Positions 22,574 through 25,512 of a DNA stretch of 64,000 bases are shown piece after piece. The position numbers were made by a program, and so were the translations under genes. The notes under the pieces were generated by a model. The model did not search any database, was not told the origin of the DNA, and worked only from the letters and a program-made list of their open reading frames with translations. The DNA lies in assembly GCF_044324875.1 (NCBI RefSeq), contig NZ_CP172185.1, one strand, 5' to 3'. The stretch comes from Escherichia coli. GTDB lineage: Bacteria; Pseudomonadota; Gammaproteobacteria; Enterobacterales; Enterobacteriaceae. How positions within the stretch are numbered: the stretch's first letter is position 1; each line of letters begins with the position of its first letter.

Positions 22574-24190
22574 ATGCTCAGTCAAATTCAACGCTTTGGC
22601 GGCGCGATGTTCACGCCAGTGCTGCTGTTTCCCTTCGCCGGGATTGTGGTGGGTCTTGCCATCTTGCTGCAAAACCCGATGTTTGTCGGGGAATCACTGA
22701 CCGATCCGAACAGTTTATTCGCGCAAATCGTACATATTATTGAAGAGGGCGGTTGGACGGTATTCCGTAATATGCCGCTGATTTTTGCTGTCGGTTTACC
22801 CATTGGCCTTGCTAAGCAAGCGCAGGGGCGAGCTTGTCTGGCGGTGATGGTGAGTTTCCTGACCTGGAACTATTTCATCAACGTGATGGGAATGACCTGG
22901 GGAAGCTACTTCGGCGTCGATTTCACTCAGGACGCGGTGGCAGGTAGCGGTCTGACAATGATGGCCGGGATTAAAACCCTCGATACCAGCATTATCGGCG
23001 CAATTATCATTTCCGGCATTGTGACGGCGCTGCATAACCGTCTGTTCGATAAAAAACTGCCGGTTTTTCTCGGCATTTTCCAGGGGACATCTTATGTGGT
23101 GATTATCGCCTTCCTGGTGATGATCCCCTGCGCCTGGCTGACATTACTCGGCTGGCCAAAAGTACAAATGGGGATTGAATCTCTGCAAGCGTTCCTGCGT
23201 TCGGCGGGTGCGCTTGGGGTCTGGGTTTACACCTTCCTCGAACGTATTCTGATCCCAACCGGTTTACACCACTTCATCTACGGACCGTTTATCTTTGGTC
23301 CGGCAGCTGTTGAAGGCGGCATTCAGATGTACTGGGCGCAGCATCTGCAAGAGTTCAGTCTGAGCGCCGAGCCGCTGAAATCGTTGTTCCCGGAAGGCGG
23401 TTTTGCCCTGCACGGTAACTCAAAAATCTTTGGTGCCGTGGGCATTTCTTTAGCGATGTACTTCACTGCCGCACCGGAAAATCGGGTAAAAGTGGCGGGC
23501 TTGCTGATTCCCGCAACCTTAACCGCCATGCTGGTGGGAATTACCGAACCGCTGGAATTTACCTTCCTGTTCATTTCACCGTTGCTGTTTGCGGTACACG
23601 CTGTGCTTGCGGCCTCAATGTCGACCGTGATGTACCTCTTTGGTGTGGTGGGCAACATGGGCGGAGGTCTGATTGACCAGGTTTTACCGCAAAACTGGAT
23701 CCCGATGTTCAGCAACCACGCGGATATGATGCTGACCCAAATCGCCATTGGGTTGTGCTTTACCCTGCTGTACTTCGTGGTTTTCCGCACCCTGATTCTG
23801 CAATTCAACATGTGCACGCCGGGACGTGAAGATGCGGAAGTGAAACTCTACTCAAAAGCCGAATACAAAGCCTCGCGAGGCCAAACCACCGCTGCAGAGC
23901 CAAAAAAAGAGCTGGATCAGGCTGCCGGTATCCTGCAAGCCCTGGGCGGGGTCAGCAATATCTCCAGCATCAACAATTGCGCGACGCGTCTACGGATTGC
24001 ACTGCATGACATGTCACAAACGCTGGATGACGAAGTCTTTAAAAAGCTGGGAGCGCACGGCGTCTTCCGTAGTGGCGATGCCATTCAGGTGATCATTGGT
24101 CTGCATGTATCCCAGCTGCGTGAACAGCTCGATAGCTTAATTAATTCTCATCAATCAGCAGAAAATGTTGCCATTACGGAGGCAGTATAA
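22574..24190 (+). CDS. glvC: PTS alpha-glucoside-specific EIICB component, apparently full-length (538 aa)
   Basis: EIIC membrane domain followed by EIIB motif NCATRLR; start taken at [10 protein letters not shown] (ORF track extends 69 codons upstream with no SD). Confidence 0.85.
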
Positions 24191-25512
24191 TGACCAAATT
24201 CTCAGTGGTTGTCGCAGGCGGTGGAAGCACCTTTACGCCAGGCATCGTGTTGATGCTCCTGGCGAATCAGGACCGTTTCCCGCTTCGTGCACTGAAATTT
24301 TATGATAACGATGGCGCGCGGCAGGAAGTGATTGCCGAAGCCTGTAAAGTCATCCTAAAAGAAAAAGCGCCGGACATTGCGTTTAGTTACACCACCGATC
24401 CTGAAGTGGCATTCAGCGACGTTGATTTTGTCATGGCGCACATCCGCGTCGGCAAATACCCGATGCGCGAACTGGATGAAAAAATCCCGCTGCGCCACGG
24501 CGTTGTTGGTCAGGAAACTTGCGGACCCGGCGGAATAGCGTACGGCATGCGTTCCATTGGCGGCGTCCTGGAACTGGTGAATTATATGGAAAAATATTCA
24601 CCAAATGCCTGGATGCTCAACTACTCCAACCCGGCAGCCATTGTCGCAGAAGCCACGCGTCGTCTGCGCCCGAATGCGAAAATCCTCAACATCTGTGACA
24701 TGCCAATCGGTATTGAAAGCCGGATGGCGCAAATTGTTGGGCTGCAAGATCGCAAACAGATGCGCGTGCGCTACTACGGCCTGAACCACTTTGGCTGGTG
24801 GACATCAATTGAAGATTTGCAGGGCAACGACCTGATGCCCCAGCTGCGGCAATATGTCTCTAAGCACGGTTATGTTCCACCGCAGCAAGATACACATACT
24901 GAAGCGAGCTGGAACGACACCTATGCAAAAGCGCGGGATGTCCAGGCTCTGGACCCGGATACATTACCGAATACCTATCTGAAATATTATCTCTTCCCGG
25001 ATTATGTCGTTCAGCATTCCAACCCTGAACATACCCGCGCGAATGAGGTGATGGAACATCGCGAGAAACAGGTTTTCGATGCTTGCCGCGCCATTACGGC
25101 GGCAGGAAATTCAGCGGCGGGCAAGCTGGAAATTGACGAACATGCGTCATACATCGTCGATCTTGCGGCGGCGATTGCCTTCAACACTCAGGAGCGGATG
25201 TTGCTGATTGTGCCTAACAACGGGGCAATCCATAACTTTGATGATGAAGCGATGGTCGAGATCCCGTGTCTGGTCGGGCACAACGGACCAGAACCACTGG
25301 TGGTCGGCGATATCCCGCAGTTTCAGAAAGGGTTAATGAGTCAGCAAGTGGCGGTGGAAAAACTGGTCGTGGACGCCTGGGAACAGCGTTCATATCAGCA
25401 CCTGTGGCAGGCGATTACGTTGTCGAAAACGGTACCGAGCGCCTCGGTCGCCAAAGCTATTCTGGATGAGTTGCTGGAGGCCAACAAAGCGTACTGGCCA
25501 GAGTTACGTTAA
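24190..25512 (+). CDS. glvG: 6-phospho-alpha-glucosidase, GH4 family, apparently full-length (440 aa)
   Basis: N-terminal NAD-binding motif [12 protein letters not shown] and GH4 Cys motif; start overlaps glvC stop. Confidence 0.9.

Follow-up and report, generated by a model that had tools for sequence, protein, structure and literature searches.

Does the glv locus of the E. coli strain analyzed here encode a complete pathway for alpha-glucosides, when K-12 carries broken genes at the same site? In a passage of PMC5309279, the K-12 homologues of the Klebsiella genes aglA and aglB are regarded as cryptic or truncated, a view dating from the 1990s. The original prediction was that the window, i.e., the whole 64,000-nucleotide stretch of DNA that was analyzed, holds a 538-codon EIICB ORF and a 440-codon GH4 ORF that are both uninterrupted, and this was confirmed by the ORF listing and by alignment to K-12. 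Our reading, to which we give a probability of about 75%, is that the window carries the ancestral, undamaged enterobacterial alpha-glucoside PTS module yidP/glvCB-glvG, orthologous to aglA, aglB and the neighboring GntR-family regulator gene of the Klebsiella agl system and related to glvA/glvC of Bacillus subtilis, which would work by the mechanism proposed below.

Reading frames of the glv locus and the lesions of K-12

The EIICB gene, glvCB (22574..24190, + strand, 538 aa), begins with the ATG at 22574, and its stop codon overlaps the start codon (ATGA) of glvG (24190..25512, + strand, 440 aa), the predicted GH4 6-phospho-alpha-glucosidase gene, whose 3′ end shares 4 bp with the convergent yidL. 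The glvCB start was set at 22574 because the N terminus and the Shine-Dalgarno sequence (GAGGAT, 22562-22567) are conserved in more than 30 genera; a longer ORF from GTG 22367 (607 aa) was rejected as a mere in-frame upstream extension. In the closest genome (99.9% identity), the RefSeq annotation has the same two CDSs, of 1617 and 1323 bp, and Pfam recognizes PTS_EIIC and PTS_EIIB in the glvCB product and both GH4 domains in that of glvG. When compared by tblastn with more than 50 orthologues from other genera, the window genes were full-length and essentially ungapped, with no stop, frameshift or deletion.

The K-12 counterpart, glvC-glvB-glvG′ (b3683, b3682, b4556), occupies the same locus between yidP and yidL, and its DNA is 98.6 to 99% identical. 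Alignment to MG1655 located both K-12 lesions base by base. K-12 glvC and glvG had been taken to be frameshifted or truncated; both are indeed damaged, and a frameshift is present in glvG, which has suffered a 508-bp deletion, but not in glvC, which carries a nonsense substitution. A C>T change at window position 23678 turns codon 369 of glvCB (23678..23680, + strand), CAG (Gln) in the window, into TAG (Q369*) and so separates glvC from glvB. The split products are a GlvC of 368 aa, cut ahead of the last transmembrane helix, and a GlvB of 161 aa that starts at Met378. The 508-bp segment that is kept in the window (24783..25290, + strand) is bounded by the 8-bp direct repeats GAACCACT (24783-24790 and 25291-25298); its deletion takes out glvG codons 198 to 367, Tyr263 and Arg283 included, and shifts the frame. 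K-12 GlvCB also has P238Q, which replaces a proline found in 69 of 69 homologues. All three changes are absent from the window. Substitutions and the 508 bp missing from K-12 are the sole differences in the aligned region. As there is no indel across glvCB relative to MG1655, its open frame is not owed to the choice of frame, and such an artefact is ruled out by this observation together with the full-length alignment to orthologues. The K-12 state is a derived one, in which a nonsense mutation specific to this lineage adds to a slippage deletion that is widespread.

In a survey of 5,426 complete E. coli genomes, glvG was undeleted in 1,652 (~30%), O157:H7 and BL21 among them, and had the 508-bp deletion in about 2,600 (~48%); yidP-glvCB-glvG was wholly absent from about 1,150 (~21%). 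Codon 369 was CAG in 3,925 genomes and TAG in 348, and among the matches listed the TAG carriers were all K-12 or laboratory derivatives. With the stop allele restricted in this way and undeleted glvG so frequent, the rarity implied by the contrast with K-12 was overstated. RefSeq annotation already shows intact glv genes in over 1,600 E. coli genomes, and those of the window represent an ordinary state of a known polymorphism, with little significance beyond housekeeping; for this locus, K-12 serves poorly as a reference. A 79-bp gap in yidP was present in 2 of 60 evenly spaced rows, and a 72-bp probe for this deletion matched only 2,605 genomes, an implausibly low and unreliable count because yidP is SNP-rich and megablast requires exact 28-mers. 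Likewise, the counts obtained with centred 55-mers for GlvG residue 255, 137 genomes for the window haplotype (D255) and 437 for the D255A haplotype, are lower bounds only because nearby synonymous SNPs split the haplotypes. The locus was reported in 2009 to be absent from phylogroup B2.

Predicted functions of GlvCB and GlvG

By its sequence, GlvCB is a single-chain alpha-glucoside PTS EIICB, with predicted transport activity. It scored 956.3 bits against TIGR02005, the alpha-glucoside-specific IIBC model (cutoff, 607.3), residues 2-523 covering profile positions 1-524, and all of the glucose, maltose, GlcNAc and beta-glucoside EII models remained below cutoff. Pfam placed PF02378 at residues 10-346 and PF00367 at 453-482, and the protein aligned end to end with the solved PtsG EIICB. 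The EIIC motifs GLHH (230-233) and GITEP (322-326) and the EIIB motif CATRLR, with the phosphorylatable Cys469, are present, and both Glu325 and Cys469 are invariant across 70 to 71 homologues. GlvCB is 77 to 84% identical to its orthologues in Citrobacter, Klebsiella and Raoultella. Pfam and subfamily profile searches detected no EIIA domain in GlvCB, and crr does not lie within the region examined. Since GlvCB has no EIIA domain, Crr would be supplied in trans.

GlvG is assigned in the same manner as a GH4 NAD+/Mn2+-dependent 6-phospho-alpha-glucosidase, with hydrolysis predicted. It matched PF02056 (223 bits) and PF11975 (190 bits) and has an N-terminal NAD+-binding motif of the GGGS type at residues 6-18. 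Ungapped alignments showed 89% identity (915 bits) to PDB entry 6DUX, which together with 6DVV we take to be AglB of Klebsiella pneumoniae, and 73% identity (748 bits) to B. subtilis GlvA (1U8X). The catalytic set of GlvA comprises the Mn2+ ligands C171 and H202, the catalytic residues D172 and Y265, and R95, N149 and R285 for phosphate and substrate binding. The active-site residues are all present in GlvG (R93, E109, N147, C169, D170, H200, Y263 and R283), and the four that were checked, C169, D170, H200 and Y263, are invariant in 79 of 79 homologues. The window protein has a private D131N substitution, at a position where other genera have D, E, K or R.

Well-described relatives are available for comparison. 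K. pneumoniae agl, which encodes the EIICB AglA, AglB and a divergent GntR-family regulator, has the same three-gene architecture as the window, and the agl genes of related Klebsiella and Raoultella species are found at the same chromosomal site. GlvCB is approximately 79 to 81% identical to the orthologues of Klebsiella and Raoultella, and an EIIA domain is lacking in agl as in glv. In contrast to K. pneumoniae agl, the E. coli module varies within the species, with at least six kinds of inactivating lesion, and its intact form is known here from sequence. The B. subtilis maltose PTS, glvA(malA)-glvR-glvC(malP), uses the same chemistry, with EIICB uptake followed by a GH4 NAD+/Mn2+ 6-phospho-alpha-glucosidase, and its GlvC is approximately 60% identical to GlvCB. 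Its gene order differs from that of the window, the hydrolase gene coming first (loci L079 and L083), and it is controlled by an RpiR-type regulator, unlike the GntR/HutC-type YidP. Expression of the K. pneumoniae aglA and aglB genes in E. coli K-12 led to the use of methyl-alpha-glucoside, isomaltose and sucrose isomers, according to a passage of PMC5309279 that cites Pikis 2006, Thompson 2001 and Reizer 1994. The B. subtilis pair confers on E. coli the use of isomaltose, panose, palatinose and other sugars, as stated in a passage of PMC5309279.

In the mechanism that we propose, GlvCB would import an alpha-linked glucoside, i.e., methyl-alpha-glucoside, isomaltose or sucrose isomers (palatinose, turanose, trehalulose, maltulose, leucrose), and phosphorylate it at O-6. 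The phosphate would pass from PEP through EI, HPr and glucose EIIA (Crr, acting in trans) to Cys469 of the EIIB domain. GlvG, with NAD+ and Mn2+, would then split the 6-phospho-alpha-glucoside into glucose-6-phosphate and the aglycone. Transcription would probably start from a weak CRP-dependent promoter inside the yidP-glvCB spacer, and YidP would probably repress at a GTCTA-N16-TAGA(C/T) palindrome until the phosphorylated sugar binds to its UTRA domain. A functional alpha-glucoside pathway in the window strain is plausible; we infer which sugars it accepts, that it relies on Crr, how CRP and YidP act on it, and that it is expressed and active in that strain. If native E. coli alleles prove to be active, they could replace the Klebsiella or Bacillus genes in metabolic models and in strain engineering for isomaltose or palatinose.

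YidP and the yidP-glvCB spacer

Both yidP and yidL had been proposed as regulators of glv; the proposal is credible for yidP, which travels with the module, and does not hold for yidL. Divergent from glvCB, yidP (21563..22279, − strand) encodes a GntR/HutC-family regulator of 238 aa, with a GntR winged helix-turn-helix at residues 3-64 (PF00392) and a UTRA effector domain at 87-224 (PF07702). Among proteins of solved structure, the repressors YvoA/NagR and DasR are its best relatives. In essentially all of the gamma-proteobacterial loci compared (L005 to L056), yidP neighbors the EIICB-GH4 pair in divergent orientation, and genomes without the module have lost it jointly with glvCB-glvG. YidP is thus likely the cognate regulator of glvCB-glvG; our literature search found no functional study of it. 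As for yidL, it belongs, judging from gene neighborhoods, with yidK-yidJ and is not linked to glv: it occurs in other genera only alongside yidK-yidJ, it remains beside yidK in E. coli genomes deleted for yidP-glvCB-glvG, and it is lost along with yidK/J/I in strains that retain glv.

The 294-bp spacer between yidP and glvCB contains several conserved elements. A 34-bp inverted repeat, AGATGTCTACTTTTTCG/CGAAAACGTAGATCT (22395..22428), has 17-nt arms that are 82% complementary, with half-sites GTCTA at 22399-22403 and TAGAT at 22420-22424. The pattern GTCTA...AAAnGTAGA is invariant over 13 genera, the center of the palindrome varies, and the left half-site of the window, GATGTCTA, is the consensus of the other genera. 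We take the half-sites to resemble operators of the HutC family, and the palindrome (GTCTA-N16-TAGA(C/T)) is a candidate YidP operator. The motif TAGATCTCT (22283..22291), which lies a short way upstream of the start codon of yidP, recurs without mismatch at 22420-22428, and the block TAGA(C/T)CTCT is conserved in 13 genera. The motif might serve as a second operator or an autoregulation site. This site overlaps the ribosome-binding region of yidP, and the overlap alone could explain its conservation.

The best-conserved non-coding block of the intergenic alignment is the nearly invariant AAAAGCATGAAAGCGATCACGAATC (22440..22464). Its core, CATGA-N6-TCACG (22445-22460), matches TGTGA-N6-TCACA at 7 of 10 positions and is centered approximately 60.5 bp upstream of the inferred transcription start, which makes it a candidate CRP site. 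Further downstream, TTCCTATCCTC (22497..22507, + strand) is conserved in 32 Enterobacteriaceae leaders. It may either provide the −10 hexamer (TATCCT, 22501-22506) of a weak activator-dependent promoter or act as an anti-Shine-Dalgarno element of the leader RNA, two readings that are inseparable. A simple scan found no sigma-70 consensus promoter in 22150-25700, and the promoter is for this reason positioned by conservation only.

Across the aligned leaders, TTCCTATCCTC can pair with the Shine-Dalgarno sequence in 89.5% of cells, without covariation. Between the two lies a small hairpin or inverted repeat (22513..22539, + strand), in which AGGCC (22513-22517) faces GGCTT (22535-22539). Four of its five pairs change on both sides among genera (GACC/GGTC, GGCT/AGCC), and 0 of 500 shuffles reached the observed count of changed cells. 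Pair counting supports this small inner hairpin only, not the anti-Shine-Dalgarno helix. RNAalifold predicted neither helix on the leader alignment, and an Rfam search of the leader returned no match at an E value of ≤1.

Expression, selection and ancestry of the module

The alternative that survives best is an operon that, despite its intact ORFs, is cryptic or impaired under ordinary conditions, comparable to bgl, asc and chb, with no alpha-glucoside phenotype unless an activating mutation arises; we consider it unlikely, at a little over one chance in five. The bgl, asc and chb operons likewise encode PTS sugar systems that vary among natural isolates and, in laboratory strains, are silent or in decay. 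They belong to families unrelated to glv (GH1 phospho-beta-glucosidases, BglG antiterminators), and K-12 glv is not just silenced but broken in its coding sequence. The lack of a consensus promoter speaks for a cryptic operon, but a promoter that is weak, depends on CRP and is under repressor control would likewise be missed by a consensus scan, and the footprints of the promoter region are retained, including a left half-site that fits the consensus of other genera. A private A104V substitution in the window GlvCB, at a site where 67 of 68 homologues have Ala, points in the same direction as the missing promoter, as does the description of the K-12 homologues as cryptic or non-functional in a passage of PMC5309279.

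Phenotypes bear on the same question. Our literature search found no alpha-glucoside phenotype or expression data for O157:H7, EAEC 042 or other E. coli strains with the intact trio. To our knowledge, clinical identification tables give E. coli as essentially always negative (~0% positive) for alpha-methyl-glucoside fermentation. The B strains BL21(DE3) and REL606, despite full-length ORFs, were negative on methyl-alpha-glucoside, palatinose, turanose and maltitol (PMC6150544, Table S6). These Biolog negatives were discounted as proof that intact ORFs are non-functional, since they are explained by the B allele, which has D255A, G357S, L320P and a yidP deletion.

That the species loses the locus repeatedly, through at least six independent kinds of inactivating lesion, also fits crypticity and argues that glv is often dispensable. 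Against long silence stand the pN/pS ratios, which were 0.026 for yidP, 0.034 for glvCB and 0.063 for glvG (the comparable yidL, 0.055), and the identity of the GlvCB protein in five strains with the intact trio. At invariant positions of GlvCB, radical substitutions (G167D, P238Q, G357S and R516H among them) were found in strains with an already broken operon, in contrast to intact-trio strains, which are free of them. Several glvG alleles counted as intact have substitutions at near-invariant sites, namely D255A (at least 437 genomes), P217H (O157) and G125C (A27).

A more elaborate proposal is that intact glv remains under selection and is expressed conditionally, as a pathway for alpha-glucosides from plants or the diet (sucrose isomers, isomaltose), kept or lost according to niche. 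It would be gated by YidP, by CRP and by a conserved but undescribed structured leader, in which an anti-Shine-Dalgarno helix enclosing the covarying GGCC hairpin (22497-22567) would control translation initiation. We regard this combination as a long shot.

The ancestral module is further supported by synteny. The order ibpB-yidE-yidP-glvCB-glvG is shared by Citrobacter, Klebsiella, Raoultella, Kluyvera, Enterobacter, Lelliottia, Buttiauxella, Cedecea and Kosakonia; beyond these genera, Aeromonas, Proteus, Serratia and Vibrio also have the yidP-EIICB-GH4 triad. The shared chromosomal site across the Enterobacteriaceae indicates that the module is ancestral. Recent horizontal acquisition from Klebsiella or Citrobacter would fit the absence of the locus from about 21% of E. 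coli genomes and the fact that the closest proteins outside E. coli are from Klebsiella indica and Citrobacter, but it is effectively refuted. The insertion site is identical across genera, the GC content is 0.50 to 0.54 as in the flanks, and the window is 98 to 99.9% identical to more than 4,000 E. coli alleles as opposed to only ~77 to 83% (DNA) for other genera. Moreover, E. coli genomes without the module retain 46 bp of the yidP 3′ end, and in them the 3′ end of yidL is truncated, which indicates loss by deletion. The population picture is that of ongoing mosaic gene loss from one ancestral module, with no new kind of biology.

Arbutin, a beta-glucoside, had been suggested as a test sugar; it is unsuitable, the enzyme family acting on 6-phospho-alpha-glucosides. 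The annotation of glvC as arbutin-specific is a legacy one. That glv is an arbutin or beta-glucoside PTS, a label that persists in the literature (Touchon 2009, Table 5; PMC2617782), can be dismissed with near certainty, as the beta-glucoside IIABC models reach 36 to 46 bits on the EIIB domain only, against 956 bits for the alpha-glucoside model, and GlvG, with its 89% and 73% identity to solved 6-phospho-alpha-glucosidases, scores at most 213 bits against the GH4 6-phospho-beta-glucosidases 1S6Y and 1UP6, versus 915 bits.

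Gene content of the glv locus and its lesions in K-12

The glv genes lie near oriC on the E. coli chromosome, in the gene order dnaA, gyrB, dgo, ibpAB, yidE, yidP, glv, yidLKJ, emrD, ilvBN, uhp. ORF listing placed glvCB on the plus strand from an in-frame ATG at 22574 to 24190 (538 aa), followed by glvG at 24190-25512 (440 aa). This bore out the uninterrupted EIICB and GH4 ORFs of the original prediction, as did the RefSeq start in the closest genome, strain O17_K12a (99.9% identical), which is the same ATG. The glvCB frame is open upstream as far as GTG 22367; the true start is 22574, because the N-terminus MLSQIQ and the Shine-Dalgarno sequence just 5′ of the ATG (GAGGAT, 22562-22567) are kept in more than 30 genera.

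GlvCB has PTS_EIIC and PTS_EIIB domains, and domain searches found no EIIA domain in it. It scored 956 bits against TIGR02005 (alpha-glucoside-specific IIBC; cutoff 607), all other sugar-specific models remaining below their cutoffs, and it contains GLHH, GITEP and the residue that can be phosphorylated, Cys469. Both GH4 domains are present in GlvG, which aligns ungapped with two solved 6-phospho-alpha-glucosidases, 6DUX (89% identity) and B. subtilis GlvA, 1U8X (73%). GlvG has the full set of residues that serve in GlvA as Mn2+ ligands, catalytic Asp/Tyr and substrate-binding Arg, Asn and Arg; the four checked (C169, D170, H200 and Y263) are invariant in 79/79 homologues. YidP (21563-22279, minus strand) belongs to the GntR/HutC regulators and contains a UTRA domain; among solved proteins it is closest to YvoA/NagR and DasR, which are sugar-responsive repressors. 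Orthology and integrity of the glv genes in the window are near certain. Arbutin, which had been proposed as a test sugar, is a beta-glucoside; both the domain models and the structural relatives indicate alpha-glucosides as substrates, and "arbutin-specific" is a legacy annotation.

In MG1655, the interval between yidP and yidL is annotated as glvC (368 aa), glvB (161 aa) and an 815-bp glvG pseudogene. Base-by-base alignment of 22280-25520 with K-12 revealed 29 substitutions and one 508-bp gap, plus an intergenic T/A run that differs in length by 1 bp. No indel lies inside glvCB; the open frame is hence not an artifact of frame choice. Both genes are damaged in K-12, as had been predicted, but glvC is not frameshifted: a single C>T at 23678 changes CAG (Gln369) to TAG, and GlvB restarts at Met378. 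Alignment to solved PtsG, together with the transmembrane topology of that protein, places the stop before the last transmembrane helix, so the glvC/glvB split does not fall at a natural boundary between the IIC and IIB domains. In K-12, GlvCB also carries P238Q, at a proline invariant in 69/69 homologues. The glvG deletion (24783-25290, codons 198-367) takes out codons that include the catalytic Tyr263 and Arg283, and it causes a frameshift; bounded by two GAACCACT copies, it is a typical slippage deletion.

RefSeq labels the complete 538-aa EIICB of the window and of compared genomes "PTS sugar transporter subunit IIB". The 161-position "equivalog" profile NF007255 (NCBIfam, PRK09702) matches GlvCB 378-538 (369 bits, cutoff 321), a span corresponding to GlvB of K-12. 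The misleading name therefore appears to stem from a K-12 pseudogene fragment, with NF007255 the likely reason why thousands of full-length EIICB proteins bear it.

Ancestry and distribution of the module

We compared 79 loci from species-representative genomes. A divergent YidP homologue, EIICB and GH4 form a constant triad across gamma-proteobacterial matches, and the order ibpB-yidE-yidP-glvCB-glvG is common to many Enterobacteriaceae genera; the module is therefore ancestral at this site, and the window keeps the ancestral state. Whereas YidP belongs to this triad, consistent with its predicted role as a glv regulator, YidL does not: among these loci yidL was seen only with yidK and yidJ after it, in glv-less E. 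coli it still lies beside yidK, and in some glv-keeping E. coli it is gone together with yidK/J/I. Judged by gene context, YidL is a neighbor, not a glv regulator. Two Kluyvera loci (L008, L009) and one from Superficieibacter (L028) have a second, diverged tandem regulator-EIICB-GH4 copy directly 3′ of the first, sharing 55 to 60% (YidP) and 85 to 86% (GlvG) identity with the window proteins; yidL-yidK follows this copy in L009 and L028.

The locus is present in 4,279 of 5,426 complete E. coli genomes. The 508-bp glvG segment is retained in 1,652, including O157:H7 and BL21 derivatives, and deleted in about 2,600. Codon 369 is CAG in 3,925 genomes and TAG in 348, and the TAG matches listed are all K-12 or laboratory derivatives. 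In the approximately 1,150 genomes lacking yidP-glvCB-glvG, yidE nearly abuts yidL; they retain a 46-bp remnant of the yidP 3′ end, and their yidL is shortened at its own 3′ end, so the site is not an empty one but has undergone a 3.9-kb deletion. glvC is among the functions missing from phylogroup B2 (Touchon et al. 2009, PMC2617782). Other, independent lesions are a 79-bp yidP deletion (BL21-AI, MLI023K1, ECONIH5), a 370-bp glvCB deletion (Z226-6) and IS200/IS605-TnpB-associated deletions. In the window, the glv locus is an ordinary allelic form of a known operon, and this form is already annotated.

In several strains, an IS200/IS605 tnpA remnant and a TnpB/InsQ gene replace yidL-yidK-yidJ-yidI directly 3′ of glvG (ETEC1722, L092; A27, L090; Z226-6, L086; M23917, L003); in M23917 the replacement extends over most of glvCB and all of glvG. 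In the window, glvG and yidL are convergent and their 3′ ends overlap by 4 bp (25509-25512), leaving no space for an intervening terminator. YidL of module-deleted genomes has a shorter, different C-terminus (...KNTDR*).

Functional state of the pathway

We consider it roughly 60 to 70% likely that the glv pathway is functional in the window strain. In support of function, pN/pS among sampled E. coli alleles was 0.026 for yidP, 0.034 for glvCB and 0.063 for glvG (0.055 for yidL), and the GlvCB protein is identical in five strains with all three genes undamaged (O157:H7, ET350, KK05-19, A27 and ETEC1722). Radical GlvCB changes at conserved sites occur in broken-operon strains (G39R and P238Q in E9, G167D in O111:H8, P243L and R516H in OkiPb, L320P and G357S in BL21), so decay comes after the first hit. 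Comparison of glvG-deleted with intact-trio loci (L085, L087, L088, L090, L092), a small sample of 14 alleles, suggests relaxed selection on the transporter after loss of the hydrolase. The glvG-deletion strains (L093, L094, L095, L001) each have their own set of radical changes (from G39R, G167D, P238Q, P243L and R516H). The repeated shedding of the locus within the species counts against function or leaves it uncertain.

Also on this side, some full-length glvG alleles are altered at near-invariant positions (D255A; P217H in O157; G125C in A27), the D255A haplotype occurring in at least 437 genomes. The B lineage (BL21-AI, L084; L089; L091) has full-length glvCB and glvG yet carries the 79-bp yidP deletion, GlvCB L320P (adjoining GITEP) and G357S (an invariant Gly), both seen in BL21, and GlvG D255A (an invariant Asp); an uninterrupted ORF thus overcounts E. 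coli with an undamaged pathway. As a further uncertainty, GlvCB of the window has a private A104V, where 67/68 homologues have Ala, and GlvG a private D131N at a tolerant position.

K-12 expressing the Klebsiella aglA/aglB or B. subtilis glvA/glvC pair uses methyl-alpha-glucoside, isomaltose and sucrose isomers, and its own homologues were called cryptic or truncated (PMC5309279). The window glvCB/glvG are the E. coli orthologues of aglA/aglB and relatives of the B. subtilis genes. BL21(DE3) and REL606 were negative for methyl-alpha-glucoside, palatinose, turanose and maltitol on Biolog plates (PMC6150544, Table S6), but as the B allele is visibly damaged, these negatives carry no weight for the window. 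Negative results on these sugars were likewise recorded for the type strain of E. coli, which may or may not carry the locus (PMC4334874). Our literature search found no phenotype data for intact-trio E. coli strains.

Regulatory sequences and a low-GC island

We aligned yidP-glvCB spacers of 13 genera, as well as 32 leaders, and found five conserved elements. A 34-bp palindrome (22395-22428), with invariant half-sites GTCTA and TAGA(C/T) 16 bp apart, is a plausible candidate HutC-type operator. The others are TAGATCTCT, found at 22283 and again at 22420; an almost invariant CRP-like block (22440-22464; core CATGA-N6-TCACG); TATCCT (22501-22506); and the glvCB Shine-Dalgarno sequence. Were TATCCT the −10 hexamer, transcription would start at approximately 22513 and the CRP-like block would be centered near −60.5, as a class I site. 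No sigma-70 promoter was found by a consensus scan, a result compatible with a promoter that is silent or that depends on an activator.

RNAalifold and Rfam searches of the leader returned nothing. In most minimum-free-energy folds (22497-22567), the conserved TTCCTATCCTC pairs with the Shine-Dalgarno GAGGAT; this outer helix lacks covariation because the Shine-Dalgarno sequence never varies. The small inner hairpin, AGGCC (22513-22517) with GGCTT (22535-22539), covaries across genera, both sides having changed in 4/5 pairs. The leader element could be a leader RNA structure, a DNA palindrome or merely the −10 hexamer.

Elsewhere in the window, a low-GC (0.32-0.39) island of approximately 3.2 kb (about 36000-39200) separates ilvN and uhpA, which adjoin in K-12. 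Pfam and PADLOC gave no match for its two plus-strand ORFs, 36134-37441 (435 aa) and 37657-39159 (500 aa), both annotated as hypothetical proteins in the closest genome.
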